A DNA stretch of 64,000 nt from Patescibacteria group bacterium. Lineage in GTDB: Bacteria > Patescibacteriota > Microgenomatia > UBA1400 > PJMF01. The stretch is from NCBI GenBank assembly GCA_041747555.1, contig JBGTEY010000010.1:2958-66957 (forward strand), written 5' to 3'. Below are positions 5,809 through 44,037 of the stretch, piece after piece (the first letter of the stretch is position 1; each line of letters starts with the position of its first letter). The position numbers and the translations under genes were made by a program. The notes beneath the pieces are model-generated. The model saw only the letters and a program-made list of their open reading frames with translations. It did no database searches and had not been told where the DNA came from.

Positions 5809-7347
5809 ATGCTAAAGCGCACAATTGAACTAGCTAGAAACACTTTGCAAGCAAAGAATGACTTCCAGGCTCTCAAAATGAGAAGGCCAGTTAATTTTTT
5901 TGAAGTCACTGCATTTGGTTCTCTCATGTCGCTGTCAAAAGACCTACCGGCACCATCAAAAATGGGGATACAACATCTGTATCTGCTTCAAGATTTTATG
6001 GAGCGCCAAAACTTTCGCACTGATGAGGCAGGTATGAGTGAGTCAATCTGGGACCAGCAATGCATTCTAGAGCTCCATGCACTACTGTCTCAGATAGCAG
6101 CTGAGTATGAGAACACACATGGTGACGATGCAGAATCTCGTTTCTCGGTATTTTTTTCAGCTCTACAAGCTTGGTACTGCAGTAATCCGATTATCGAGGA
6201 TTTTATTCATGAAAAACAAGCTCATCCAGATCCAGACCAGTCAGCCATCTTGAACAGGATATCTAACACAGACCCATCAGAAAGAGCAAGTGTTCATAAA
6301 GAGGAAGTAGCCATGCTTTGGATTTCTGCATCATTAGCCGCATTGTATGAGGGGTCGAGTACAGAAATTGAAAGTGCCACTGAATGTACGCATACACTGA
6401 CAATGCTCTATCAAGTTTCTGAAGATTTTGTTAATCTCGAGCGAGATTGGAGGGTGAATAAAAAATCGCTATTCACGTCTGGTTTTGATTCGCTTCAAGA
6501 AGCAAAGCGAGCAGGGCTGAAATTGTTCTTAAAATATTTGCAGAAATACTTTTCTGTGATAGAAAATAATTTTCTAAAGCTTGTTATTGTAGAAGTTTGG
6601 CTTGTGCGTACTATTCACGCGTATTTGGCAGCAAAGAAGTATGGCACTGTCTGGCGTCAAATTGATCGATATCAATCCGCAGATCTAAAGGAGCGGCAAA
6701 TAGGTGGAATGCATTTAGATAATTCTTTACAACTCCCGCTCAAGGGGGGATTGAAGCCACTCATTGCCCAGTCCAAACATTCAGATGTGTATCAGCACGA
6801 GGATGTGGTGATCAAGGTCCCCAAAAAGGCGCGCGAAAGTACACACACGCTTGCTGAAATAGTGGAAGTACCAGAGGGCATGCGAGTTGAGTCAACCAGT
6901 GATGTTTTGATATCAGGGAATGATGCCGAAGGAATGCAAATATCAGTACAGAAAAAAGTTGATGGTTCTACACTGAGAAACATGGGTTTAGAAGGTTTGT
7001 CAGTAGATGCACTGCAGTCACTTCTGCAGCTGAATGCAATCGAGCAGAACTTGCTGCGCGACGGCATGTTCTTTGACTCGGTTGGCAGGGGTTCTGAATC
7101 GAGTGACGGGATGCTCACTAAGGTAAAAATGCTCCTAAATTTGTATGGATACTCCTCTAATATCATGCAATCTCAGGATGGAGAACTAGTTATTATTGAT
7201 GAGGAAGTATATGACAACAAATCCCCATTATTTCGTTTCGTCATCGGGGTGGCACTGAAGCTAAATAGGCTGAAACTATCAGGACTAGCTAAAAAGCAGC
7301 CTAATTTAAAACCAAAATCCCGGCATTCAAAAGCGTCGCAAAACTAA
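5809..7347 (+). CDS. Hypothetical 512-aa protein: helical N-terminal half, C-terminal half with a protein-kinase-like motif order (speculative)
   Basis: Divergent from 5039..5743. C-terminal VVIKVPKK (beta3-Lys-like), LLRDGMFFDS (catalytic-loop-like) and LVIIDEEVYD (DFG-like Asp) occur in kinase order. No confident family assignment. Confidence 0.5.
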   Translation: MLKRTIELARNTLQAKNDFQALKMRRPVNFFEVTAFGSLMSLSKDLPAPSKMGIQHLYLLQDFMERQNFRTDEAGMSESIWDQQCILELHALLSQIAAEYENTHGDDAESRFSVFFSALQAWYCSNPIIEDFIHEKQAHPDPDQSAILNRISNTDPSERASVHKEEVAMLWISASLAALYEGSSTEIESATECTHTLTMLYQVSEDFVNLERDWRVNKKSLFTSGFDSLQEAKRAGLKLFLKYLQKYFSVIENNFLKLVIVEVWLVRTIHAYLAAKKYGTVWRQIDRYQSADLKERQIGGMHLDNSLQLPLKGGLKPLIAQSKHSDVYQHEDVVIKVPKKARESTHTLAEIVEVPEGMRVESTSDVLISGNDAEGMQISVQKKVDGSTLRNMGLEGLSVDALQSLLQLNAIEQNLLRDGMFFDSVGRGSESSDGMLTKVKMLLNLYGYSSNIMQSQDGELVIIDEEVYDNKSPLFRFVIGVALKLNRLKLSGLAKKQPNLKPKSRHSKASQN

Positions 7348-7771
7348 CCCACAGTAAATACGGCACCAAGAGATACGCCGCCCAACGCGACAGTGGATAA
7401 AATTTCTTAATCGTCAACACAATCATCACCCACATCGCGAGGATCACGACCAAAGCCAGCGCAGGTGATTTCAATCCAAAAAAGATCGGACTCCAAATAA
7501 AATTTAATGCCAACTGCGCTGCAAAATACTTGAGCGCGGTTCTATTTTTCTTCTTAGAAGTCCCTTGCTGCCAAACCAAATACAACGATACACCCATCAA
7601 AAAGTACAAAATCGTCCACGCAGGTCCAAACACCCAATTGGGTGGCGCAAAGAATGGTTTGTTGAGGGTGGCGTACCACGTGGGGATGGCGTTGATGGTG
7701 AACGGGGTGCCGAGGATGCCGGTGAGTTGGCAGAGGATTAGAGATGCGAGGAGTTTTTTTGGGTTTTGCAT
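7301..7771 (-). CDS. tspO: TspO/MBR family tryptophan-rich sensory protein
   Basis: 156 aa, 5 TM helices, conserved WYATLNKPFFAPPNWVFGPAWTILY and Trp-rich segments. Its 3' end overlaps the convergent 5809..7347 ORF by 47 bp. Confidence 0.8.
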   Translation of the reverse strand: MQNPKKLLASLILCQLTGILGTPFTINAIPTWYATLNKPFFAPPNWVFGPAWTILYFLMGVSLYLVWQQGTSKKKNRTALKYFAAQLALNFIWSPIFFGLKSPALALVVILAMWVMIVLTIKKFYPLSRWAAYLLVPYLLWVSFATLLNAGILVLN

Positions 7772-8351: not shown

Positions 8352-8379
8352 CCTGTTTTTGATACAATACTACTCAAGA

Positions 8380-8709
8380 ATGAAAAAAATACTCCAAAAG
8401 TTACTTGAGTTTAGGGAACAACGTGATTGGCATCAATTTAATACACCTCAAAATATAGTAAAATCGATTGTTCTTGAAGCTGCGGAGTTACTCGAGGTCT
8501 TTCAATGGAAAATTAATGAGAAAATTGATTCCGAGGAAAAAGAAAAGATAGCAGAGGAAATGGCAGATATTTTCAACTGGTTGATCCTCCTTTCCCATGA
8601 CTTAAACATTGATATTCAAAAAGAGGCTCTAAAAAAAATAAAGCAAAATGCTGAAAAGTATCCAGTCAATAAATCAAAAGGTAGTCCCAAGAAATATACA
8701 CGCTTATGA
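8380..8709 (+). CDS. MazG-like nucleotide pyrophosphohydrolase (small all-alpha NTP-PPase)
   Basis: LEFREQRDWHQFNTPQNIVKSIVLEAAELLEVFQW...EEMADIFNWLILL matches the MazG-like/YpjD-type signature. The track ORF begins at TTG 8359; ATG 8380 is preferred. The stop overlaps the next start as ATGA (8706-8709). Confidence 0.6.
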   Translation: MKKILQKLLEFREQRDWHQFNTPQNIVKSIVLEAAELLEVFQWKINEKIDSEEKEKIAEEMADIFNWLILLSHDLNIDIQKEALKKIKQNAEKYPVNKSKGSPKKYTRL

Positions 8710-10577
8710 TCGTTTACCAATCTACAAAGAAGCAGTTTTTAGTTGATGCGGCAAACGGGATTGAAGACATGATCCTTGATAAGGTTTCTGCAAACCTAGG
8801 GATGCGTGTTCAAGAAAATGGCAGTGAGTACAATTCCTGGAAAAACTCACTCGGCAACTACATGTTTCATGTGATGAATGATGAGGCAATTGCTGATGAT
8901 GTGAATGTTGCGGTTGAATACTCGATTCCTCGTACAAAAAATAGGATAGACTTTATTATTACTGGACTTGATGAAAACAACGAAGAAAAGGTAATTATTA
9001 TTGAGCTCAAGCAATGGTCTGAGGTTGGAGTAACGAACAAAGATGCAATTGTATCAACTCGGTTTCAGCATGGAGTAACTGAAACTAATCACCCCTCATA
9101 TCAAGCTTGGTCCTATTCAACATTACTTAATAATTTTAATGAAGTTGTCTATTTAGAGAATATCGATTTAATTCCGTGCGCATACCTACATAATCATCAG
9201 GATGATAATACCGTCACCAATGATATTTATAAGGAGTACTTGGTAAAAGCACCCCTTTTTTGTAAAGGTGAAAAAGAAAAGCTCCAAAAATTTATAACCA
9301 AATATGTAAAAAGTGGTGGAAGTAAGGATCTTCTCTATCGAATTGATTCCGGAAATGTAAGGCCAAGTAAAGAATTGGCTGATAGTCTTGCATCTATGAT
9401 GCTTGGAAATAAAGAATTTGTGCTCATTGATGATCAAAAGTTGGTTTACGAGACTGCTTTGGATCTTATTAGAAAAAATGAAGATACACAGAAACAGGTG
9501 TTTATTATTGAAGGTGGTCCAGGAACGGGAAAGTCAGTAGTAGCAATCAATTTGCTTGTAACTGCTATTCAAAACAAACTGAATGCGCACTACGTTACAA
9601 AAAACGCTGCGCCAAGAGCAGTTTTCGAGGCAAAGCTCACTGGGTCAATGACTAAGACAAAAATTCATAGCCTTTTCCAATCGTCGGGGGCATACATACA
9701 TGCAGAGCAAAATGAAATTGACGTTCTGATTGTGGATGAAGCTCATCGATTGAATGAGAAAGGTGGTATATTTAGCAATCTTGGTGAAAATCAAATCAAA
9801 GAACTAATTTATGCCGCCAAGACTTCTATATTTTTCATAGATGAAGATCAAAGGGTAACGTGGAAAGATATTGGTGAAAGCAGCGCAATAGAAGTGTGGG
9901 CTAGAAAATTGGGTGCAAACGTAAATCGGGCGAAATTGGAATCTCAATTTAGATGTAACGGCTCTGATGGATACCTAGCATGGCTTGATCATGTGCTTGA
10001 AATAAAGGAAACTGCAAATACCTCGCTACGAGGTATTTCATACGATTTTCGCGTTTTTGATTCGCCAACAGAAATGCGTAATGCTGTAATCTCAAAAAAT
10101 ACAAAAAATAAAGCTCGAATTCTAGCTGGTTATTGTTGGGACTGGGTCAGTAAAAGAGATAAGTCTTTGGCAGATATTGAATTTCCTGAATTTGATTTTT
10201 CCATGCAGTGGAATTTAACTGATGATGGCTATACGTATGTAATAGCTCCAAATTCAATAAATCAAGTGGGATGTATCCATACCGCACAGGGGCTCGAGCT
10301 TGAATATGTTGGTGTAATTATAGGTAAGGATTTATCGATAAGGAACTCGAGGGTGGTCACGGATCCTAGTGGAAGGGCAAAAACTGACAAATCACTCCAT
10401 GGCTACAAAAGAGATTTAAAGGCAGGTATCGAGGGTACTGAGGCAAAAGCTGATCTTTTGATAAAAAATACATATAGAACTTTGATGACGAGGGGAATGA
10501 AGGGATGTTTTATTTTTTCTGAGGATGAAGAGACGAGAGAATACTTTAGGAGTAGAATTGGTAAATTTTTTATCTGA
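8706..10577 (+). CDS. DUF2075-family ATPase/helicase-like protein with N-terminal PD-(D/E)xK-like nuclease motif
   Basis: 623 aa. N-terminal RIDFIITGLDENNEEKVIIIELKQW has the D...ExK spacing of the restriction-endonuclease fold. Walker A IIEGGPGTGKSVV and Walker B VLIVDEAHRL are present. The overall layout is that of DUF2075 proteins. Confidence 0.7.
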   Translation: MIVYQSTKKQFLVDAANGIEDMILDKVSANLGMRVQENGSEYNSWKNSLGNYMFHVMNDEAIADDVNVAVEYSIPRTKNRIDFIITGLDENNEEKVIIIELKQWSEVGVTNKDAIVSTRFQHGVTETNHPSYQAWSYSTLLNNFNEVVYLENIDLIPCAYLHNHQDDNTVTNDIYKEYLVKAPLFCKGEKEKLQKFITKYVKSGGSKDLLYRIDSGNVRPSKELADSLASMMLGNKEFVLIDDQKLVYETALDLIRKNEDTQKQVFIIEGGPGTGKSVVAINLLVTAIQNKLNAHYVTKNAAPRAVFEAKLTGSMTKTKIHSLFQSSGAYIHAEQNEIDVLIVDEAHRLNEKGGIFSNLGENQIKELIYAAKTSIFFIDEDQRVTWKDIGESSAIEVWARKLGANVNRAKLESQFRCNGSDGYLAWLDHVLEIKETANTSLRGISYDFRVFDSPTEMRNAVISKNTKNKARILAGYCWDWVSKRDKSLADIEFPEFDFSMQWNLTDDGYTYVIAPNSINQVGCIHTAQGLELEYVGVIIGKDLSIRNSRVVTDPSGRAKTDKSLHGYKRDLKAGIEGTEAKADLLIKNTYRTLMTRGMKGCFIFSEDEETREYFRSRIGKFFI

Positions 10578-10597
10578 TAGCTAAAGAATAATTCCCT

Positions 10598-11083
10598 ATG
10601 CATTCCCACCAATATTTTACCACTTACAAAACCCTCCCCAGCCCCAAACTCATCGAAGCAATCTGCAACCTCGTCTTCACCGACAACCGCGCCATGCCTG
10701 CGCATTACACCAGCAACGGTGGGACGCAGTCGTTTTGTGTTGATTTTGATGGCATTCAGGAGGACGACGAGTATCAAATGGCGTCGGTGGCATTTTATCA
10801 AGTGCATGACTATATGGAAGATGCGGACAATCTTTCTGACTCAGATCGGGCAATGATCATACGGTGTGGTGAGGATTTGATGATTAGCTCCTATATCTTG
10901 CATACTCTTGAGAGAGTAGAGGTGCTCGAAGAAGTAATCGAGTGGCTCACCCAAGCAAATCTTGAGGGCTGGCCCGTTGAGGAAGGCGCAGAGCGAGTGT
11001 TTGGGACGGAGTCTGCACGGAAATGGTTTGCGTTTTGTGTGGAGTATGGTGGGGAAGTGGCTACAAAGGCTCGTTCAATCTAA
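10598..11083 (+). CDS. Hypothetical acidic protein (161 aa)
   Basis: Starts 20 bp after the DUF2075 stop on the same strand. Strongly acidic. No recognisable motif. Confidence 0.45.
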   Translation: MHSHQYFTTYKTLPSPKLIEAICNLVFTDNRAMPAHYTSNGGTQSFCVDFDGIQEDDEYQMASVAFYQVHDYMEDADNLSDSDRAMIIRCGEDLMISSYILHTLERVEVLEEVIEWLTQANLEGWPVEEGAERVFGTESARKWFAFCVEYGGEVATKARSI

Positions 11084-11154: not shown

Positions 11155-11373
11155 CTACCTGCTCCGTTCCGCCTTTTCAACTTCGCCGGCAACGTCAACT
11201 TCTTGCACCTCATTATCATCCCCATCTTGATACAGCCCGACTTCTTCGACCTGTTCATCAATCGAATCGTCTGATTCTGGATTGGTCATGTGACCGCTAA
11301 CACTTTCTTCATCGTGCTCTTGTGGTGTTTCTAGTTCTTCTTCAGTAATGGTGCTTGCAGGTGTCTGTTGCAT
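11155..11373 (-). CDS. Hypothetical very acidic small protein (72 aa)
   Basis: Only ORF in the 436-bp gap 11084..11519. About 40% Asp/Glu. Could be non-coding. Confidence 0.25.
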   Translation of the reverse strand: MQQTPASTITEEELETPQEHDEESVSGHMTNPESDDSIDEQVEEVGLYQDGDDNEVQEVDVAGEVEKAERSR

Positions 11374-11519: not shown

Positions 11520-12779
11520 TTGAAAAAAGACATACTAGTTTTCATGAACACCACAAACACCCAAACCACTGGCACGCTTTTTACATCCCTTCTTGGCGCA
11601 GAAATTTCACCAGAGCAAGAAAATGACCACTTTCTTCTCAGCCTCTACGTCCCCAATGACAGCTCTAAATTGCAGGTTAGCCAGGTTATCAAATCCCATA
11701 TTTCCCGGGCATTCAAATCTCAAGAATCAACCAAAGATTTCATGCGCGTTGCAGATGCAATTACCGAAGTGTTTGAAAAACACGTGCACGACACGCCAGA
11801 GCTTTTGGAAGGCATGGCATTCTTTACCCCCTTCCAACTGACCACTGATCGTCCAGAGGATATCCGTGAAAAAATCGTGTCTGAGATGATTTTTATCAAA
11901 CTCCACAGCGCACCACAACCAAATGCAACGATTGGCACAATATATAATCTTGACCAGCTGGCATTCATCACCCAGCGGCAATTTTATGCGCATGTGCTCC
12001 ACGTGACCAGAAATGAAGCTGATGTCTATCAATACGACACGCAAAGTTTTGAGAAAATATTCACTATTGAGAACCCTTATTTAGTAGACAAAGAAAAAGA
12101 ACATCTAGAATTTTATGGACCAAGTCAAGGAAAGCGAGTCGTACATGGTACAGGGAGCAATAAGCTTTCTAAGCGCGAAGACAAAGAAAACGAGCAATTT
12201 CTGAAGCGTGTCATCGAATCATTTGAAAAAAAAGTCCCGGTCACCGACCAGCACGAGCTCCTGTTCGTCTACTACTCAGAAAACTTTGAAGATCACATCA
12301 AGGACGCAGTAGATGCACTCGACAAAAAACGCAAAAACCTCCACTGCATCCTCATCGACAAAAATCACCCTACGGCCAGCGAGCTCAAAAAGGCAACCAC
12401 ACAAGAGCTCAAAAACCATCGCAACAAAGCAACGGACACCGTACTCAATGCACTAAAAAATAACCGCAGTACCTTTGCAGTTGGCTGGAACGACGTCACC
12501 AAAGCCAGTCGCCACGGCATGATTGAAGCACTCATTATCAAGGTTGGCGCAGAACAAGAGGGGTACCTCCTAGAAGACTACCTCTACAGCTACCCAATCA
12601 TGGGATCAAGCAAGGTGGACTCTCTGTATCGGCACTTGGTGCGAGCTACGATCCAGAGTGGGGGAGAAATATATCTCATTGATAAGGGTCTGCAGAAAAA
12701 AAATCCGTTACATGACATAGAAGTCGCTGCGCTCATACCGAGCCATGCTGATTTTCTCAATATCACAGATTCTGATTAA
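11520..12779 (+). CDS. eRF1/Pelota-like three-domain protein (bacterial release-factor-like, baeRF-type), GGQ motif absent
   Basis: VHGTGSNKLSKREDKENEQFLKRVIESF aligns with eRF1 central-domain [29 protein letters not shown] with GGQ replaced. LLFVYYSENF matches GLVLAGSADF. FAVGWNDVTKASRHGMIEALIIKVG matches eRF1 domain-3 [20 protein letters not shown]. The track ORF starts at TTG 11520; an alternative ATG is at 11544. Confidence 0.5.
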   Translation: MKKDILVFMNTTNTQTTGTLFTSLLGAEISPEQENDHFLLSLYVPNDSSKLQVSQVIKSHISRAFKSQESTKDFMRVADAITEVFEKHVHDTPELLEGMAFFTPFQLTTDRPEDIREKIVSEMIFIKLHSAPQPNATIGTIYNLDQLAFITQRQFYAHVLHVTRNEADVYQYDTQSFEKIFTIENPYLVDKEKEHLEFYGPSQGKRVVHGTGSNKLSKREDKENEQFLKRVIESFEKKVPVTDQHELLFVYYSENFEDHIKDAVDALDKKRKNLHCILIDKNHPTASELKKATTQELKNHRNKATDTVLNALKNNRSTFAVGWNDVTKASRHGMIEALIIKVGAEQEGYLLEDYLYSYPIMGSSKVDSLYRHLVRATIQSGGEIYLIDKGLQKKNPLHDIEVAALIPSHADFLNITDSD

Positions 12780-12858: not shown

Positions 12859-15381
12859 TTACAAACTCGTAATCAGTATGTAATTCAACTTAGCATTCAC
12901 GGCACCGCGATCAGTCAAAACCGTAATTCTGCCATCCTGCACATTTACAATGCCTGCGTAATAGTCAAAATTATCTTGGCTATCATCAGTAAACGTAATA
13001 TTCTCCACGCGCAAGTGGTTGAGTGAGTCGGTAAAGCTAGCGTCACCAGCCATGATTGTCACTTGATACGTGCCATTGGGAACCGCAATTTCCCAGGTAT
13101 ACCTACCACCAAGTTGCATATGAATTAGCGTATTGCGCAGGAGTGATTCGTTGGAGGTTCTTTCTCTGGTAGCTGATTCTATATTTGAATTCCAGCCGTA
13201 TGTTTGACCATTTCTGACACCATACACCTGACCGTAATCAGGTAGATAGCCACTGGGTATCGAAGCTGTTTGTGGTTGGAAATTGATTTTAATTTCATTA
13301 ATTGTTGTCGGTGGAGTGACGGGCGCAGAGGTGGGTGTAGATATGGGGCTCGGCTGGGTTCCTATCACCGGACTTGGGCGAACTCTCGCAGAGGGTTGCG
13401 GTGTGAGCGCGGGACTTGGGTTGGTTGGAGTTGATGGTGTTGACGGCGTTGGAACAGGCGCCGAAGCTGTATTCATCTCGAATGCACCTATGTTTGGATT
13501 TTGACCGCGCGTTCGACCCAGAATATCTTGGGTTGGAGCAAGATCTGGATTGGCTGCATCGATGACGGTGCTAGAGTTCGGTTCACCGTAAAAACTCACT
13601 ATGTCAGAAAAGACGTCAGAAATTGCTGCCCTGGCTATTGCTCCTGAGCGGACAGCGCGAAAGGTACTGCCGTTCCAGGTGGGTGTAATAATTGTCGATA
13701 CATCGGGTAAATCAGGATTAACAACAACGCGAGTTGCGTCCTCTGTGTATTGTGCCAAGAAGCTATTCACCACGGGGATGGGATTTCCTCCATTCCAAAA
13801 TACATTGTTAGTCAGAAGTCTGTTTGAGGTGATGCCGCTACTGTCAGCTTGCGCAAAATACGCAGGACTTCCATCTTCTGACCCCATGGTACCGGTTGGA
13901 TCAGACCAAATATTATTGGCGATAGTGACGTTGTTGTTTGGATAGTTTTGTGAAAAACTTTGTGTTTTGAGGCGATAGCCGTAGTGTCTGCTTGGCAAAT
14001 TGCCCGTAATGGTATTGTTGCGGAACATGAAATTGTTGACACCTTCAAGTTCGAAGAGCGCTTTGGTTATACCTGTGCCATTTCCGATAAATAAATTGTT
14101 TTCTACTAATCCATGATTGAGCACATAGGATAGCGTGTCTTCTGCGCCAAATTGGAGCCAAGGAATTTGGGTGCCGGTGGTGCTGTAGTTGAAGAAAATA
14201 TTCTCAGAAATCGTAATTGAGTTAGAGCCAACGATAGTATCGCAATTTGAGCCCGTTGGATCGCACGTATCTAGCCTGGAGCCAGGACTTGAGCTACTGG
14301 AATTGACCGCAAACGTGTTGCCATTGGGGTGGGGGACAACCACAGAGCCCGACTGATTAGTGAGTCCAGCTCGGTTTATTTCTGGGACCCCGAGACTACT
14401 ATCTTTTACCACAATATACCCAGCTGGTTCGGCATTTTTTGCAAAATCATTAAAGAAAATATTCTTGTTTATTTTTACGTTGAAAACACTATTCACATCA
14501 ATAAATTCTTCTGTGGTTCCATTATTCGCTGTAGAGCCTGCCTGATTATTTTTGGTGGCTTGATTGTAGAAAAGATTGCCGGTGATATTGATATCGCCGC
14601 CATTTTGAATCTTGATGTGGTCGTTGCAATAGCTGTCGTGAATGATGTTATTTTCAAAGGTGATTTGACCAGAATAATCGGTGCCGTTGGGGTAGAGCTT
14701 GGAATTTGCATCGTAGTAGACGTTGTCTGGTCCTCGTTTTGCACCAAATGGGCCACCAGGGTCACTCGAATCATTTACCTGAATAATGTATGCAGAACTA
14801 TTGCTTGGATCGCATGAGGGGATTGGTTCGATGTGTTTAAGCTCTAAATCTGCAATGCGAAGGTTGTAGGCATTATTTAATCGAAGTACGATGCCAGTAT
14901 TTTGCAGAACTGCTTTATATGGAGTAGCTGCGGTTACGGTTACGGGGTATTGAAAATGTTTATCTATAATTTGTTGTTCACCTGTGTACACACCATCGGT
15001 GAAGATAATTGCGTCACCTGCCTGACTTCCAATTCCGGGGAGGCTCAGGGCAGTTTTAAGTGATTTGCAAGGTTGGGAGCTGGTGCAGGGTGATGAATCA
15101 TTTCCATTGGGAGCAAGGTAAAAACTTCTGGTGATAACTTGAGCTGCAGGCGCGGCTTGAGATTCAGGCTCGGTCCGTGTGGAGATATTTGCGACACTGA
15201 GGCCGACTGCGCCAAGAATGATTAACACCGGTATCAGTGTTTTTGCTAAACGAGCGGCGTTACTTTGACGAGGTCTTCTGGGAGCAGTATCAGGCGACGG
15301 ATACGTTGAACTGGATTGCGCCGAAGCGAACGAATCATTGGTGTGAGGAGACGACAGTCGTTCTGATGGATTAGTCTGCAT
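12859..15381 (-). CDS. Large membrane-anchored surface protein with right-handed parallel beta-helix (pectate-lyase-like) region, Pro/Thr/Ser-rich linker and C-terminal globular domain
   Basis: 840 aa. N-terminal charged tail plus one TM (LIPVLIILGAVGLSV). Asn-rich repeats of the form NN..I.N / GN.F.N. A PT linker (PVPTPSTPSTPTNPSP...TPTSAPVTPPTT) precedes a ~190-aa C-terminal domain. Confidence 0.6.
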   Translation of the reverse strand: MQTNPSERLSSPHTNDSFASAQSSSTYPSPDTAPRRPRQSNAARLAKTLIPVLIILGAVGLSVANISTRTEPESQAAPAAQVITRSFYLAPNGNDSSPCTSSQPCKSLKTALSLPGIGSQAGDAIIFTDGVYTGEQQIIDKHFQYPVTVTAATPYKAVLQNTGIVLRLNNAYNLRIADLELKHIEPIPSCDPSNSSAYIIQVNDSSDPGGPFGAKRGPDNVYYDANSKLYPNGTDYSGQITFENNIIHDSYCNDHIKIQNGGDINITGNLFYNQATKNNQAGSTANNGTTEEFIDVNSVFNVKINKNIFFNDFAKNAEPAGYIVVKDSSLGVPEINRAGLTNQSGSVVVPHPNGNTFAVNSSSSSPGSRLDTCDPTGSNCDTIVGSNSITISENIFFNYSTTGTQIPWLQFGAEDTLSYVLNHGLVENNLFIGNGTGITKALFELEGVNNFMFRNNTITGNLPSRHYGYRLKTQSFSQNYPNNNVTIANNIWSDPTGTMGSEDGSPAYFAQADSSGITSNRLLTNNVFWNGGNPIPVVNSFLAQYTEDATRVVVNPDLPDVSTIITPTWNGSTFRAVRSGAIARAAISDVFSDIVSFYGEPNSSTVIDAANPDLAPTQDILGRTRGQNPNIGAFEMNTASAPVPTPSTPSTPTNPSPALTPQPSARVRPSPVIGTQPSPISTPTSAPVTPPTTINEIKINFQPQTASIPSGYLPDYGQVYGVRNGQTYGWNSNIESATRERTSNESLLRNTLIHMQLGGRYTWEIAVPNGTYQVTIMAGDASFTDSLNHLRVENITFTDDSQDNFDYYAGIVNVQDGRITVLTDRGAVNAKLNYILITSL

Positions 15382-21998: not shown

Positions 21999-24758
21999 TT
22001 AATCGTTTATTTTTACTTCTTCAAATTGTAATTCTGCACCAATGGTTCGCTCATAGTACTCAATCATGACGGTGTGCTCACCCGCGGTCAGTTCTTGCTC
22101 CACTTCATAATACGTCGTTCCTTGATCTTTCCACTGATCAATGACGAGCTCGCCATCAACATACAGTCGAATTCCGTCATCGCCCCCGAGTGTGAATCGA
22201 TACGTTCCTGCTTCGTAAGTTTCTGTTTTAAGTGCCCTCAGTGAGAAATAATCATTGGAAACGAGCTGATGTGGTGATCCAAGGCCCCAGCTAAACGCAA
22301 TTTCGGGGTGAATATCTGCATAAATTGGTTCGCCGTTGAGGGTAATATTGTTAAAATACTCAACCAAAAAGTCACCGGAATCAACTATAACGGGCTCTTC
22401 TTCTATTGTCGGAGCAATAGTGAGCATGGCAGTAGCGCCATATTGTCGCTCGTAGTATTCCATTTTGATTACATGTGTACCAGCTTCGAGCTCCAGATCA
22501 ACGACATACGTAGTTTTGGGTTGATCTATCCATTTATCTATGACTAGTTCATCGTCAACGTATAGTCGCACGCCATCATCTGCAGAAACCATAAAGCTGT
22601 ATGTACCTGCGTCAAATTCTTGATTTTTAACCCAGCGAGCCGAGAAGTAATCCTTGGTTATGCTGGGATCTGGAGCGTCGAGTCCCCAGTCGTGTTGGAT
22701 TTCTGTTTCAAATCGTTCGAGCGCAGGCGTTCCCGTCAAACTCATGTTATTGAAGTACGTTGCAGTAAATTGATCAGTGGGAGTTGGAGGGTCTGTGGGT
22801 TCTGGTTCTTCTTCACCGGGATCAGTTTCATCAAGTGATGACCAATCGAGCGCAGCAAACGCACCGACTTGGTTCTCGTAATACTCCATGGTAATTGTGT
22901 GAACGCCATCGAGGTCTGCGTCATGCGTGTAGGTTGTTGGTCCTTGGTCAATCCACTTATCAATAACTGTTTCACCATCTATAAGTAGGCGTACACCATC
23001 ATCAGCGGTGACAGAGAAGCGATGTGATCCTGGCTCAAATGTGAACTGGCCTTGCCAGCGAGCAGAGAATCCATCGTTAGTAATTCCTGGCGCGGGTGAG
23101 CCGTATCCCCAATTGTTTTGAATTTCTGGATCAATACGGGTTACTGCTGGATCACCATTGAGTGACGTATTGTTAAAATATTCTGCTAAAAATCCAGCAT
23201 CGAGGGGAATATCTGTGGTTGGCACTTCTGGATCTTCATCGTCACCAGGAGGTGTGTCTGTGGTTTCAGACCAGCTCAATATGGCAGTCGAACCGACGTA
23301 GCGTTCATAATATTCCATTTTAATTTCATGTTCACCGCCAAGATCTCTGGTTGCGGTGTACGTTGTTGCACCTTGATCTTTCCACTGATCTATCACAAGT
23401 TCACCGTCTATATAGAGCCGGACTCCATCATCTGCAGTTACTGAAAATGTGTATGTCCCTGGGTCAAAGGAGAAATTTCCTGTCCAACGTGCGGAATAAA
23501 AGTCAGAGTTCACTGAGGCGTGAGGTGAAGCATACCCAAGTTCATAATTGATAGTATTTTCTTCTCGAGTAACGACTGGCACACCAGAGAGATCAATATT
23601 GTTGAAGTACTGAGCGGTAAAGACACTGGTAGCAGGTGGAACAGGATCGGGATCTGGTTCAGGACTTGGATCAGGGTCGGGTTCGCCGTCACCGGGATCT
23701 TCAGGAAGGGTTCCGCCGGTTACGGCAGTAATTGCCTCTGCCCATTTTTGGCCCATGGCGTCATAGCCTTCAGCCGTAGGATGATAATTGTCAGCTAAGT
23801 CTGCACTGGTCAAAACAGTGTGCATATCGACGTAATGAACCTTTTTGCCTTGGTCGCGTAAGTTCTGTACAACGCCAGGAATAGCTTGATTAAAAATCTC
23901 AACTTGTTGTTGCATGCTGGAATCTTGAATTGGAATCAGCGAAGCGACCAGAATATCAGTATCGGGCAATTCAGTAGTGATTGCTTGTATAAGGTTTGAA
24001 AGTCTGTTTGGTGCTTGAGCTAGATTGTAATTGAGGCGAATATCATTGGTTCCAGCAAGTAGCAATACTTGATCTGGCTGATGAACCTTGAGCCAAGGCA
24101 TCATGTTGGCATGAATTTCATCAATACGCCATCCGGGGTGTCCTTCATGGTCGCGATCAGTGAGTCCTGCAGGGCCATTTTGGAGTGTTCCGACTAGATT
24201 AATGTCTGGTAGAAGTGTTTTTAAGTTTGTTCGATAGCCACCAGGAACGTTATTGCCATGTGTATTTGAATCACCGAGCGGCATTATTCTTAAGCCAGTT
24301 GCAGAGTCTGGAGAAACTAGTTCCCAGCTCAACGCTGCAGTAGCACCACCACTTTTCTCATAGTATTCGAGAACAATAGTGTGTTCGCCTGAATCGAGAT
24401 CAATCATGGTTTGATTGAGTGTCGAACCTTGATCAACCCACCGATCAATCAATAGTTCACCATTCACCCAAAGCCTGACGCCATCATCAGAAAACGTAGA
24501 AAAAAGATATCTACCACTCTCTAGCTCAAAATCACCGGTCCATCGTGCAGAGAAGTTGTCATTATTGATAGAAGGATCAGGACTCCCGACTCCCCACTCA
24601 TTTTGAATGGTTGTCTCAATTCTGGTAAGGACGGGTTCACCCGTTAAAGTTGTGTTGTTGAAGTACTCAGCAGTGAAGTCATTTGCCGCGTGTACTTGAC
24701 CAGGTACAGTGAGGATTGTGACCGCCAAAAAAGATAGTACTGTATTTTTAAGTTTCAT
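21999..24758 (-). CDS. Secreted multidomain protein: five PA14 domains with an SGNH/GDSL hydrolase domain inserted between the first and second
   Basis: 919 aa with a signal peptide. Five repeats of the form YFNN..L.G.P.......I...WG.GSP.......FSARW.G.F.F..G.Y.F....DDGVRL..DGELVID.W.DQG match PA14. Between PA14-1 and PA14-2 lie LRIMPLGDSNTHG (block I), LLAGTNDI (block III) and DNYHPTAEGY (block V) of SGNH esterases. Confidence 0.75.
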   Translation of the reverse strand: MKLKNTVLSFLAVTILTVPGQVHAANDFTAEYFNNTTLTGEPVLTRIETTIQNEWGVGSPDPSINNDNFSARWTGDFELESGRYLFSTFSDDGVRLWVNGELLIDRWVDQGSTLNQTMIDLDSGEHTIVLEYYEKSGGATAALSWELVSPDSATGLRIMPLGDSNTHGNNVPGGYRTNLKTLLPDINLVGTLQNGPAGLTDRDHEGHPGWRIDEIHANMMPWLKVHQPDQVLLLAGTNDIRLNYNLAQAPNRLSNLIQAITTELPDTDILVASLIPIQDSSMQQQVEIFNQAIPGVVQNLRDQGKKVHYVDMHTVLTSADLADNYHPTAEGYDAMGQKWAEAITAVTGGTLPEDPGDGEPDPDPSPEPDPDPVPPATSVFTAQYFNNIDLSGVPVVTREENTINYELGYASPHASVNSDFYSARWTGNFSFDPGTYTFSVTADDGVRLYIDGELVIDQWKDQGATTYTATRDLGGEHEIKMEYYERYVGSTAILSWSETTDTPPGDDEDPEVPTTDIPLDAGFLAEYFNNTSLNGDPAVTRIDPEIQNNWGYGSPAPGITNDGFSARWQGQFTFEPGSHRFSVTADDGVRLLIDGETVIDKWIDQGPTTYTHDADLDGVHTITMEYYENQVGAFAALDWSSLDETDPGEEEPEPTDPPTPTDQFTATYFNNMSLTGTPALERFETEIQHDWGLDAPDPSITKDYFSARWVKNQEFDAGTYSFMVSADDGVRLYVDDELVIDKWIDQPKTTYVVDLELEAGTHVIKMEYYERQYGATAMLTIAPTIEEEPVIVDSGDFLVEYFNNITLNGEPIYADIHPEIAFSWGLGSPHQLVSNDYFSLRALKTETYEAGTYRFTLGGDDGIRLYVDGELVIDQWKDQGTTYYEVEQELTAGEHTVMIEYYERTIGAELQFEEVKIND

Positions 24759-35664: not shown

Positions 35665-36195
35665 TTAGAAAGAATTTTTTAGATACGAAGTATCTTTATC
35701 AAGCTGCTTGAGCACTGTTTCTTTGGCCTCATCAAGATCTTCTTGATGAACTACGGCAACTTCTTGTGCCAGAAATCGGAGCGCTTTTTTGAATAGTTGT
35801 TGCTTTCTTAATGAAAATTTACAATCAGGGTGTTGCTTGTGCATCCAGAGTTGTTTGGCAAGCGTTGCGACTTCTTCCAGATCATTTCCTTTGAGTGTTT
35901 CTGTGGCAGTTCGAACATTGATAATTTCTTCCTGGTCGCCTGGACTGTTAAGGATAGAGAAAATTTCTTTGAGCTTCTTCTTTGTGACTGGTTTTCGTTT
36001 ATTTGTGGATTCAATGTTATCAATTGGAATTGAACACATTATTGTTTTTGATTTGGTAGTTGTGAAGAGTGGGCGAAAATATACGTATTGTTTGCTATCA
36101 CCTTTGCCGTTTTTTTTGTCACGAATTTCTACAATCTCATGAGCCTTGCCGTTACTGATTAGTACGTCACCTGCTGAAAGTGAAAGTGAGCTCAT
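35665..36195 (-). CDS. CarD/CdnL-family RNA-polymerase-binding regulator
   Basis: N-terminal SAGDVLISNGKAHEIVEIRDKKN...KQYVYFRPLF...TIMCSIPIDNIES..RKPVTKKKLKEIFSIL matches the CarD_CdnL_TRCF domain. Start placed at ATG 36195 (MSSLSL...); the track ORF extends to 36327. Confidence 0.55.
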   Translation of the reverse strand: MSSLSLSAGDVLISNGKAHEIVEIRDKKNGKGDSKQYVYFRPLFTTTKSKTIMCSIPIDNIESTNKRKPVTKKKLKEIFSILNSPGDQEEIINVRTATETLKGNDLEEVATLAKQLWMHKQHPDCKFSLRKQQLFKKALRFLAQEVAVVHQEDLDEAKETVLKQLDKDTSYLKNSF

Positions 36196-36413
36196 GAAAT
36201 CCTCCTTGTTTTGTCTGATTTTAGCGTCATATGCCAAAAGTGTAAGTGCATTCATCCTAGCAGAATACAGGCCCTTTTTCAAGGCTACGAGGCGCTCTCC
36301 GCTTGACAATAGGTGTTTGATTCGCATAGAGTGTGGGAACTGGTTACCAGTGAAAACTGTTCACGCAGACTGGTGCCATCTGTATAAGTAGTATTTTTCT
36401 AAAGGAGGCACAT

Positions 36414-42318: not shown

Positions 42319-42999
42319 ATGAAAATTTTAGTAATCGAAGACGAACATCGGATTGCAAACTATATAAAAAAAGGTTTGGAGCTGCAACAGCATGTGGTTG
42401 ATGTAGCATATGATGGTGACAGTGGTTTTGACATGGCAAGTGTAGAGAAGTATGACGTCATTCTTCTTGATCTAATGCTGCCAGGAAAAGACGGCATCTC
42501 AATTTGTAAAGATTTGCGGGAGGAAGGCAATCACACACCAATTCTAATGCTCACAGCCAAATCTGCCGTTCCCGATCGAGTGACTGGTTTGGATGCAGGT
42601 GCAGATGATTATCTACCCAAACCTTTTGCCTTCACCGAGCTCTTAGCCCGCGTTAAGGCGCTTGGGAGGCGCCCACAGCAAGTTTCGGACACGACATTGA
42701 CCGCTGGCACGCTAACGCTCAACACCCATACCCAGCAGGTTGAACGAAGCGGTGCACCGATTTCACTTTCTAAAAAGGAATATTCATTGCTTGAATTTTT
42801 CATGAGACATCAAAATCAAATCTTAAGTAAAGATCAGCTTACCGAACAAGTATGGAGTTATGATAGTGATGTTTTACCAAATACAGCTCAAGTGTATGTG
42901 GGATACTTGCGCAATAAAATAGACCGGCCGTTTCCAGACGAGTTACCCCTGTTGCGTACGGTGCGTGGATTTGGGTACAGTTTTGGCGTTGGGAAGTAA
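42319..42999 (+). CDS. OmpR/PhoB-family response regulator
   Basis: Receiver domain (DDxxxxxD..., phospho-acceptor LDLMLPGKDG, K near LMLTAK) plus a C-terminal winged-helix trans_reg_C domain. Confidence 0.9.
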   Translation: MKILVIEDEHRIANYIKKGLELQQHVVDVAYDGDSGFDMASVEKYDVILLDLMLPGKDGISICKDLREEGNHTPILMLTAKSAVPDRVTGLDAGADDYLPKPFAFTELLARVKALGRRPQQVSDTTLTAGTLTLNTHTQQVERSGAPISLSKKEYSLLEFFMRHQNQILSKDQLTEQVWSYDSDVLPNTAQVYVGYLRNKIDRPFPDELPLLRTVRGFGYSFGVGK

Positions 43000-43002
43000 A
43001 AA

Positions 43003-44037
43003 ATGCAGTTATTTCTTTCAGCTCGCTTGCAGTTAACCGCATGGTATTTGTTAATCGTGCTTTTTATTACTGGTTCGGTGAGTGCAATCGTGTATTTTCG
43101 GACGACGTATGTGATTGAGCAGGAATATACACGTATTGAGCAGCGGATCTTGAGCGATTTTCGACGGATTGGGCAGCCTGAAGGTGAGACACCTGTTGAG
43201 CGAATACTGCGTGCTGATCTAGCGTTGGCCAAGAAACAGATTTTTTTGCAACTCTTGGTGGTGAATGGATTAATAGCACTGTTGTTTGCAATTGCTGGTT
43301 ATATTTTATCGGGCAAAACCTTGCGACCGATCCAATCAATCCTAGAAGAACAGCAGCGACTTGTCGCTGATGCTGCGCACGAGCTCAAAACACCCATAAC
43401 AGCGCTCAAGACCTCAATCGAAGTTAATCTTATGGATGCTTCTCTTCCCAAATCCACCAAAAAAATTCTGACAGAAAATTTAGAAGATATTGAATGTCTT
43501 GGAATGCTCACTGAAAGTTTGCTCAAGTTAGCTCGAGTTGAGCATCAGCAGCTTGATCATCAACAAATTGAGTTGTCTCAGCTTACCAAACAAGCAGTCA
43601 AGCAAATTTCACCGCTCGCAACAAAAAAACAGATCGCAATCAAAACACGCGGTATCAAGAAGCAATACCAAGTCTTTGGCGACTATGGCTCTCTCCTGGA
43701 CTTAGAGCTGCTACTTCTTGATAACGCGATCAAGTACAGTCCATCCAATTCAACGGTAACAATATCACTTGCCGAGCATCGCAGAACGATTGAGCTGAGA
43801 GTGGTAGATCAGGGAATGGGCATTCCTCGAGAGCATATTGCACATATTTTTGATCGATTTTATAGAGTCGATAGCTCACGGACTCAATCCAGAACAGGCG
43901 GTTATGGCCTTGGATTAGCGATTGCCAAGAAAATTGTGACACAACACAGGGCGAGCATTCACGTCAAAAGCTCAAGTACTACAGGAACTACTTTTACCGT
44001 TAGTTTCCCCAAGTTTTCCAGGGTAATGATCGAGTAG
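43003..44037 (+). CDS. Sensor histidine kinase (HisKA + HATPase_c), two TM segments
   Basis: H-box AAHELKTPIT. N, G1 and G2 boxes (DQGMGIP, GGYGLGLAI). Confidence 0.85.
   Translation: MQLFLSARLQLTAWYLLIVLFITGSVSAIVYFRTTYVIEQEYTRIEQRILSDFRRIGQPEGETPVERILRADLALAKKQIFLQLLVVNGLIALLFAIAGYILSGKTLRPIQSILEEQQRLVADAAHELKTPITALKTSIEVNLMDASLPKSTKKILTENLEDIECLGMLTESLLKLARVEHQQLDHQQIELSQLTKQAVKQISPLATKKQIAIKTRGIKKQYQVFGDYGSLLDLELLLLDNAIKYSPSNSTVTISLAEHRRTIELRVVDQGMGIPREHIAHIFDRFYRVDSSRTQSRTGGYGLGLAIAKKIVTQHRASIHVKSSSTTGTTFTVSFPKFSRVMIE

Follow-up and report, generated by a model that had tools for sequence, protein, structure and literature searches.

What a protein built on the three-domain plan of eRF1 and Pelota, lacking the catalytic GGQ triplet, might do in a bacterium is the question raised by a 64,000-nucleotide stretch of DNA (hereafter the window) from a Patescibacteria group bacterium (assembly GCA_041747555.1, contig JBGTEY010000010.1, positions 2,958 to 66,957). 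A preliminary description of the window had recognised such a protein in the open reading frame (ORF) 11520..12779 on the forward strand and had considered none of the bacterial eRF1-like families to be characterised experimentally. The latter statement is outdated, as Balon of P. urativorans and the mycobacterial Msmeg1130 and Rv2629 have been solved on ribosomes and are hibernation factors (PMC10901736; PDB 8rd8, 8rdv, 8rdw, 8v9j, 8v9k, 8v9l). According to its profile, Foldseek, Pfam and NCBIfam matches, the window protein belongs to the bacterial aeRF1 (baeRF-1) radiation, remotely and on Balon's side of it, with baeRF family 3 as the nearest family. By analogy with these relatives, it is probably a non-catalytic, Balon-type aeRF1 homologue acting as a ribosome hibernation factor.

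The ORF is intact and, in the ORF list, reads as 419 amino acids (aa) from TTG 11520; the peptides quoted in the preliminary description (VHGTGSNKLSKREDKENEQFLKRVIESF, LLFVYYSENF and FAVGWNDVTKASRHGMIEALIIKVG) are all present in its translation. Two public gene callers (NCBI and Logan) begin the gene at ATG 11544, which yields a 411-aa protein (P0001), and the family alignment starts near the Met of that codon, favouring this position. No clear Shine-Dalgarno sequence precedes either start. To judge from the sequence, ATG 11544 is the likely start, and all residue numbers given here refer to the 411-aa version. The Balon-like (baeRF-1/aeRF1-superfamily) gene thus delimited, 11544..12779 (+), was defined from the ORF list, gene calls, homologues, profile comparisons, the AlphaFold model and Foldseek.

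Compared as a single sequence, the window protein gave modest scores. Its best Pfam match was baeRF_family3 (PF18845; residues 150-325, E 3.7e-4, 21.3 bits, under the gathering cut-off of 31.5 bits), with a weak match to eRF1_3 (E 0.07), while the best NCBIfam match was the "MSMEG_1130 family ribosome hibernation factor" (E 3.3e-5, 23 bits, cut-off 480) and the "Rv2629 family ribosome hibernation factor" was matched at E 0.017 (14.3 bits, cut-off 320). No PADLOC model was matched at E 1 or better, no PDB sequence was recovered with the protein as sole query, and a word-indexed search of 5.8 billion proteins recovered only the protein itself, plus one further member when the profile was used. 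Exhaustive phmmer comparison with 1.84 billion cluster representatives identified 137 homologous clusters, of which 106 reached E 1e-10 or better. Almost all of them measure 380-400 aa, align from end to end and are 20-31% identical. The family alignment and profile (A1) were built from 92 of these clusters. When searched against PDB, this profile matched P. urativorans Balon (8rd8_B) with E 1.3e-11 over profile positions 61-391, followed by archaeal Pelota (4.5e-4), Msmeg1130-Balon (2e-3) and eRF1 (about 0.03-0.1). At E 0.01 or better, 47 of the 92 members matched the NCBIfam AOC03_06830 hibernation factor, 25 matched MSMEG_1130 and 11 matched Rv2629, counts for which member scores against the curated cut-offs were not listed. 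Pfam baeRF_family3 was matched by 10 members at the same threshold, eRF1_3 by eight and baeRF_family10 weakly by two, and a single member matched TIGR pelota at 3.6e-6. None of the scanned members is seen to pass a Pfam or NCBIfam cut-off. The prototype Balon is itself a strong member of baeRF_family3 (105.7 bits).

The AlphaFold model of the window protein, built on the family alignment, shows three domains with high confidence (predicted local distance difference test, pLDDT, 90; predicted template modelling score, pTM, 0.85). The first 43 Foldseek matches of this model in PDB, aligned over 330-450 columns, are all Balon, aRF1/eRF1, Dom34 or Pelota. Ribosome-bound Msmeg1130-Balon (8v9j_z) ranks first (E 3.5e-20, template modelling (TM) score 0.73, 403 columns), P. 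urativorans Balon reaches E ∼1e-16 and TM 0.66, and Rv2629 TM 0.60; the corresponding TM scores are 0.41-0.45 for eRF1/aRF1 (E 4e-17 to 1e-14) and at most 0.42 for Dom34/Pelota. Given these Foldseek E values for Balon and aRF1/eRF1 and the profile E value for Balon, similarity to the eRF1 fold is not due to chance. AlphaFold, Foldseek and the 92-member profile therefore agree with the preliminary description of a three-domain eRF1/Pelota-fold protein without GGQ, and the Foldseek comparison that it had proposed as a check places its motif matches beyond chance. Its eRF1 correspondences also reappear in the profile alignment, where the family sequence "ylvvfySssfe" lies over the "LVLAGSADF" region of eRF1 and "fvegwedVteaaregkIetLFik" is aligned to the eRF1 domain 3 peptide. 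Its parallel with Pelota/Dom34 is borne out for the GGQ-less fold, although the closest solved relatives are the Balons.

The domain order is that of the aeRF1 superfamily. The N-terminal domain (about residues 1-135, 11544..11948, +), delimited by model secondary structure and column conservation, is the counterpart of the decoding-centre domain. It is followed by an RNase-H-like middle domain (about residues 136-275, 11949..12368, +), the counterpart of the domain facing the peptidyl-transferase centre, which is supported by the sub-cut-off Pfam and NCBIfam matches and the model. The C-terminal domain (about residues 276-411, 12369..12776, +), of the eRF1_3/Pelota type (L7Ae-like), was recognised from the weak Pfam eRF1_3 match, the profile alignments and the model.

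Residues 177-206 of the middle domain (12072..12161, +) stand where eRF1 has its GGQ loop and Balon its lasso loop, as judged from profile alignments to eRF1, Pelota and Balon and from pLDDT. They end in H201-G-T-G204-S-N, and the H-G-T-G loop (H201-G204) falls over the GGQ loop of eRF1 in a register that is uncertain by about 2 residues; the registers of the preliminary description and of HMMER are 2 residues apart, and a Gln stands at that place in neither. Neither GGQ nor a family-conserved Gln was found in or near the loop, whether in the window protein or in the 92-member alignment. Apart from G202 and G204, conserved in 68 and 82% of the family, the loop sequence is variable, and a long helix with a Lys/Arg-rich start comes after it. 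At 26-30 residues, the loop is comparable in length to that of Balon, with a 2-residue gap just upstream in the profile alignment. Residues 177-202 have no secondary structure in the model (pLDDT 58), as would be expected for a loop that becomes ordered on the ribosome. The middle domain also carries the family motif D-L-D-Q-L, which reads N-L-D-Q-L in the window copy.

The conserved residues of the N-terminal domain in this family are Y35-x-P37, K50-S51, G90, F94 and P124. NIKS is absent from this domain, its tip loop reading Q-E-S-T-K and varying across the family, so that the two hallmarks of a classical aeRF1 release factor, GGQ and NIKS, are both missing while the aeRF1 architecture is kept, as in Balon. 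We considered K50-S51 as a relic of NIKS and rejected it, since these residues lie in mid-helix, about 10 residues ahead of the NIKS-equivalent tip loop.

In the C-terminal domain, a two-strand beta-hairpin insert (residues 338-358, 12555..12617, +; E-G-Y-L-L-E-D-Y-L-Y-S-Y...) is supported by model strands at 340-343, 346-348 and 356-358, by conservation within G340-Y341...Y348 (G340 97%, Y341 74%) and by its alignment to "YVGTVGADGSLYAD" of Msmeg1130 in the profile comparison. The insert stands at the site of Balon's beta-hairpin for EF-Tu binding and of the zinc ribbon of aeRF1. The baeRF-1 clade usually lacks the catalytic Gln, carries a two-strand insert or "degenerate zinc ribbon" in its Pelota domain and recurs in HPF neighbourhoods (PMC6514570; Burroughs and Aravind, 2019), and the hairpin is described in both PMC10901736 and PMC6514570. 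The window protein, a bacterial aeRF1 homologue with this insert, belongs to a family that shares the HPF neighbourhood, although its own window holds no HPF; binding of EF-Tu by its hairpin is predicted.

The resemblance to Balon (AOC03_06830; 8rd8, 8rdv and 8rdw; baeRF_family3; NCBIfam NF052287) thus extends from the three-domain aeRF1 fold without NIKS or GGQ to the flexible loop of similar length, the C-domain hairpin, the profile match over about 330 residues and the family-wide linkage to HPF/RaiA and heat-shock genes. The window protein differs from Balon in being only about 13-14% identical to it and under the Pfam and NCBIfam cut-offs, in having no conserved His-Pro in the N domain and in lacking the terminal Arg that Balon keeps (TRY). 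Its family has motifs of its own (Y-x-P, K-S, D-L-D-Q-L, H-G-T-G and N-I-x-P-W) and occurs in Patescibacteria and Thermotogota rather than in Proteobacteria or Actinobacteria. Msmeg1130/Rv2629 (8v9j, 8v9l and 8v9k) give the best global structural match and an aligned hairpin ("G-x-x-x-x-x-x-x-Y"), yet the mycobacterial loop at the GGQ position is about 14 residues shorter and the profile similarity is marginal. With aeRF1/eRF1 and Pelota/Dom34, the protein shares the fold, the domain order and alignable M- and C-domain motifs, as well as the missing GGQ with Dom34. In contrast to them, it has no NIKS or loop-A elements, bears a beta-hairpin in place of the zinc ribbon, belongs to a bacterial host that uses RF1/RF2 and has EF-Tu and HPF, not eRF3, Hbs1 or ABCE1, as predicted partners.

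Members of the family come from Patescibacteria (Shapirobacteria, Saccharibacteria and Dojkabacteria), from Kosmotogaceae/Mesotoga and from some metagenome-assembled genomes (MAGs) labelled Gammaproteobacteria or Pseudomonadales. Every member name given by its source that we looked up was "hypothetical protein" or an obvious mis-annotation. A genome scan gave matches with a 10-sequence sub-alignment and none with the single window protein. Gene neighbourhoods were compared in 23 family loci besides the window's own contig. Four loci could not be assessed, three (L004, L010 and L018) ending too near the gene and one (L028) ending inside it. HPF/RaiA (Ribosomal_S30AE, 101-106 aa) adjoins the family gene in 14 of about 19 assessable loci. 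In 12 of them (L002, L003, L005, L006, L008, L013-L017, L021 and L022), it immediately follows the Balon-like gene in the same orientation, often 0-20 bp away or overlapping it, and in L019 and L020 it is divergently upstream. No HPF was found within the flanks of L007, L009, L011, L012 and L023; L024, whose gene calls were not inspected, gave no HPF match within a 4-kb flank on each side. In L002 and L005, HSP20 is a neighbour of the Balon-like and HPF genes. Adjacency to HPF and heat-shock neighbours are the published contexts of baeRF-1 (PMC6514570) and Balon (PMC10901736). The survey of homologue neighbourhoods advised in the preliminary description accordingly yields HPF/RaiA as a recurrent partner, and its remark that no partner gene is recognisable holds for the 64-kb window but not for the family.

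Eight loci (L002 4389-5072, L005 7510-8178, L013, L017 3189-3887, L019 3246-3914, L020 3240-3908, L022 7365-8054 and L028 947-1615) have an OmpR-type response regulator immediately next to the Balon-like/HPF pair, a recurrence that suggests that a two-component system controls the hibernation operon. The closest response-regulator homologue in the window (42319-42999) lies 30 kb from the Balon-like gene, beside a histidine kinase (43003-44037). Two further 220-aa proteins were observed around these loci. One, without a Pfam family, adjoins the response regulator in the Balon-like/HPF/HSP20 neighbourhood of L002 (5146-5808, -) and L005 (8242-8904, +), the two copies being 40% identical, and has no homologue in the window. 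The other is encoded in the window (35665-36327, -), 24 kb from the Balon-like gene, and three Patescibacteria-type loci (L014 6989-7549, L015 6984-7607 and L016 6335-6964) have homologues of it (26-28% identical) at a distance of 1-2 kb downstream from the Balon-like/HPF pair. In L016, L017, L019 and L020, MAGs labelled "uncultured Gammaproteobacteria/Pseudomonadales" contain the same Balon-like/HPF/response-regulator clusters as the Patescibacteria MAGs; this might reflect unreliable labels or a transfer of the cluster.

Alongside the homology, the fold, the absence of GGQ and Gln, the hairpin, the family linkage to HPF and the taxonomic range, which were all computed here, we infer for the window protein ribosome binding, A-site occupancy, EF-Tu contact and a physiological role by analogy with Balon, in which the HP motif of the N domain contacts A1492/A1913 and the M domain has the lasso loop at the GGQ position, which wraps A2602, and the bL27 trap (PMC10901736). 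Under stress or in stationary phase, the protein would enter the ribosomal A site without codon reading and independently of mRNA, and its N domain would lie at the decoding centre. The middle domain would put the GGQ-less H-G-T-G loop and the helix with the basic start beside the peptidyl-transferase centre, where no peptidyl-tRNA would be hydrolysed, and the C domain would touch EF-Tu(GDP) via the beta-hairpin insert. The ribosome would thereby be silenced and protected, normally jointly with the short HPF/RaiA that is encoded directly downstream in most family members. Hibernation is likely, rather than Dom34-like rescue or a part in conflicts, because the closest solved relatives are Balons.

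Several observations weigh against this assignment. The His-Pro motif by which Balon contacts the decoding centre is not conserved: an HP dipeptide occurs in 13 of the 92 members, in scattered columns, and nowhere in the window protein, a check limited by Balon residues 1-52 being unaligned to the family profile, so that an equivalent element other than HP is possible. An N-domain-only profile aimed at this motif gave only chance matches in PDB, and the N domain taken alone shows no similarity to Balon in sequence. On its own, the window protein stays under the Pfam and NCBIfam cut-offs (21 versus 31.5 bits and 23 versus 480 bits), and a model derived from the family alignment cannot reveal structural change specific to this copy. 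The role is assigned to the whole subfamily by homology with the solved Balon complexes. Moreover, a profile built on four neighbouring HPFs detected no HPF/RaiA anywhere in the 64-kb window. Two family motifs are also replaced in the C domain, where the mismatches of the window copy are concentrated. N-I-x-P-W (N in 77, P in 82 and W in 76 of 92 members) has become S-L-Y-R-H at residues 360-364 (12621..12635, +), and the C-terminal L-R-Y has become I398-P399-S400 with an 11-residue tail (12735..12776, +), both as read from the family alignment. Of the 92 members, 89 keep the Arg of L-R-Y, as do Balon (TRY), Msmeg1130 (LRW) and Pelota (LRF); the Pro codon CCG is one substitution away from the Arg codon CGG. 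A frameshift or sequencing error behind this C-terminus was considered and rejected, as L-R-Y is not recovered in any alternative frame. In Balon, the interface with EF-Tu belongs to the C domain, so that the EF-Tu or ribosome interface of the window copy may be altered relative to the rest of the family.

These departures, together with the 2-4 Balon copies found in 38% of Balon-bearing species (PMC10901736), would fit a diverged copy, uncoupled from HPF, with a changed or partly lost function. Such a copy might, for example, have ceased to engage EF-Tu or bind another target, and it could be a second paralogue beside a canonical Balon-HPF operon. We regard this as unlikely, though still worth considering. 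The ORF is intact, and the gene is not decayed, because the protein agrees with the family consensus in 41 of 55 columns, the median for the family being 42; its nearest-neighbour identity of 0.28 is inside the family range. The five family loci noted above likewise have no adjacent HPF, and the prototype Balon itself lacks N-I-x-P-W. The isoelectric point, 5.85, is inside a broad family range and uninformative on any loss of rRNA binding. A Pelota/Dom34-like factor for rescue or quality control would also occupy the A site, but that of stalled ribosomes, and would lead to subunit dissociation or mRNA decay rather than storage. The three-domain fold without GGQ, the profile match to archaeal Pelota, the one member that matches TIGR pelota and the Dom34-like role that Burroughs and Aravind considered for baeRF-1 (PMC6514570) speak for such a factor. 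Balon is nevertheless nearer in both sequence and fold, and the tables of called genes for the loci looked up show HPF as the recurrent partner and none of the ABCE1-like, Hbs1-like or nuclease type; we therefore consider a rescue function quite improbable.

Still less probable is that the protein and the products of the MazG-like and DUF2075/Schlafen-type helicase genes upstream of it act in one anti-phage or conflict system. An origin of baeRF-1 in ribosome-targeting conflicts has been proposed (PMC6514570), and the helicase, about 0.9 kb away, has weak PADLOC matches; the Balon-like protein itself has none, an opposite-strand gene separates the two, and no homologue of DUF2075, the MazG-like protein or the 161-aa ORF that follows them lies near a family member in 23 other loci. 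An active class-I-like release factor or peptidyl-tRNA hydrolase appears the most improbable of all. The aeRF1 fold would allow it, a few baeRF-1 families such as family 10 retain a conserved Gln (PMC6514570), and two of the 92 members match that family weakly; the family nonetheless has no GGQ, no conserved Gln in or near a loop that varies among its members, and no NIKS.

Upstream of the Balon-like gene lies a forward-strand group at 8359-11083 that comprises a MazG-like pyrophosphatase gene (8359-8709, +), a DUF2075/Schlafen-group-3 helicase gene (8706-10577, +; Pfam E 1.5e-101, weak PADLOC matches to PDC-S41, Nhi and AbiO) that it overlaps by 4 bp, and an orphan 161-aa ORF (10598-11083, +) 21 bp downstream of the helicase gene. 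This group has no relation to the Balon-like gene and may be a module of the defence type. Because it does not recur in the 23 other loci searched, its adjacency to the Balon-like gene is treated as coincidental, and a defence module joining the latter to DUF2075 and MazG was rejected. The layout given in the preliminary description is correct, with the gene starting about 440 bp past the 161-aa ORF and a 72-aa acidic ORF on the minus strand between them; the start is about 940 bp past the end of the DUF2075 gene itself. Directly downstream of, and convergent with, the Balon-like gene is an 840-aa ORF (12859-15381, -; called as 789 aa), in part Pro/Ser/Thr-rich and without a significant Pfam match. 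None of the HSP20, radical-SAM, PEBP, YtxH-like or BON stress neighbours was found in the window, nor were tRNA or Rfam RNA genes, and a promoter and terminator scan gave nothing above shuffled expectation near the Balon-like gene. Elsewhere in the window, a 512-aa protein without family assignment (5809-7347, +) overlaps the 3' end of a convergent TspO/MBR gene (7301-7771, -) by 47 bp, and a protein of 919 aa that combines five PA14 domains with a GDSL lipase/esterase domain (21999-24758, -) has, like the 840-aa ORF, no clear function.

The acidic 72-aa protein (11155..11373, -), a called gene divergently oriented to the Balon-like gene, is conserved and carries the motif S-G-H..N-P..D-D....E.V-G-L..E-K-A-E.S-R. 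In the collection of 5.8 billion proteins, it forms nine clusters, none of which has a name or a Pfam family. In five loci, namely the window, L017 (2736-3035, -), L028 (1758-2051, +), L019 (6771-7118, -) and L020 (6744-6998, -), it lies no more than about 2 kb from a Balon-like gene; a response regulator stands between the two genes in L017 and L028, and radical-SAM and PEBP genes in L019 and L020. In L025-L027, it accompanies radical-SAM and, in L027 (525-779, +), PEBP and HSP20 as well; the stretches covered there contain no Balon-like gene. Elsewhere than in the five loci, the acidic protein was seen in a cluster of small ORFs, radical-SAM, PEBP and HSP20. It looks like part of the same stress-gene set and is a possible companion of the Balon-like gene. 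A bolder reading, speculative and rather unlikely as a whole, would see in the family a distinct Patescibacteria/Thermotogota Balon lineage with its own ribosome-contact motifs (D-L-D-Q-L, H-G-T-G and N-I-x-P-W, without HP), normally hard-wired to a short HPF and often located beside an OmpR-type regulator, and in the window copy an HPF-independent form whose remodelled C domain would not use EF-Tu and which would work with the acidic protein.

Hibernation of the Balon type was recognised only in 2024, and its distribution has been mapped by profile searches of reference proteomes. With baeRF-1 (2019) and Balon (2024) already known, what is new here is an unannotated lineage centred on Patescibacteria and Thermotogota, with conserved motifs of its own and a tight HPF operon, which constitutes a modest advance. 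The window copy is atypical of this lineage in having no link to HPF and in the remodelling of its C-terminal end; it escapes current Pfam and NCBIfam thresholds, and for this gene itself the gain is mainly an improved annotation. The operon of a Balon-like gene and a 101-aa HPF is a ready object for structural work. Recognising the family extends Balon-HPF hibernation to Patescibacteria (candidate phyla radiation, CPR) and Kosmotogaceae, and in the former, tiny-genome and probably slow-growing symbionts, the preservation of ribosomes is plausibly important.

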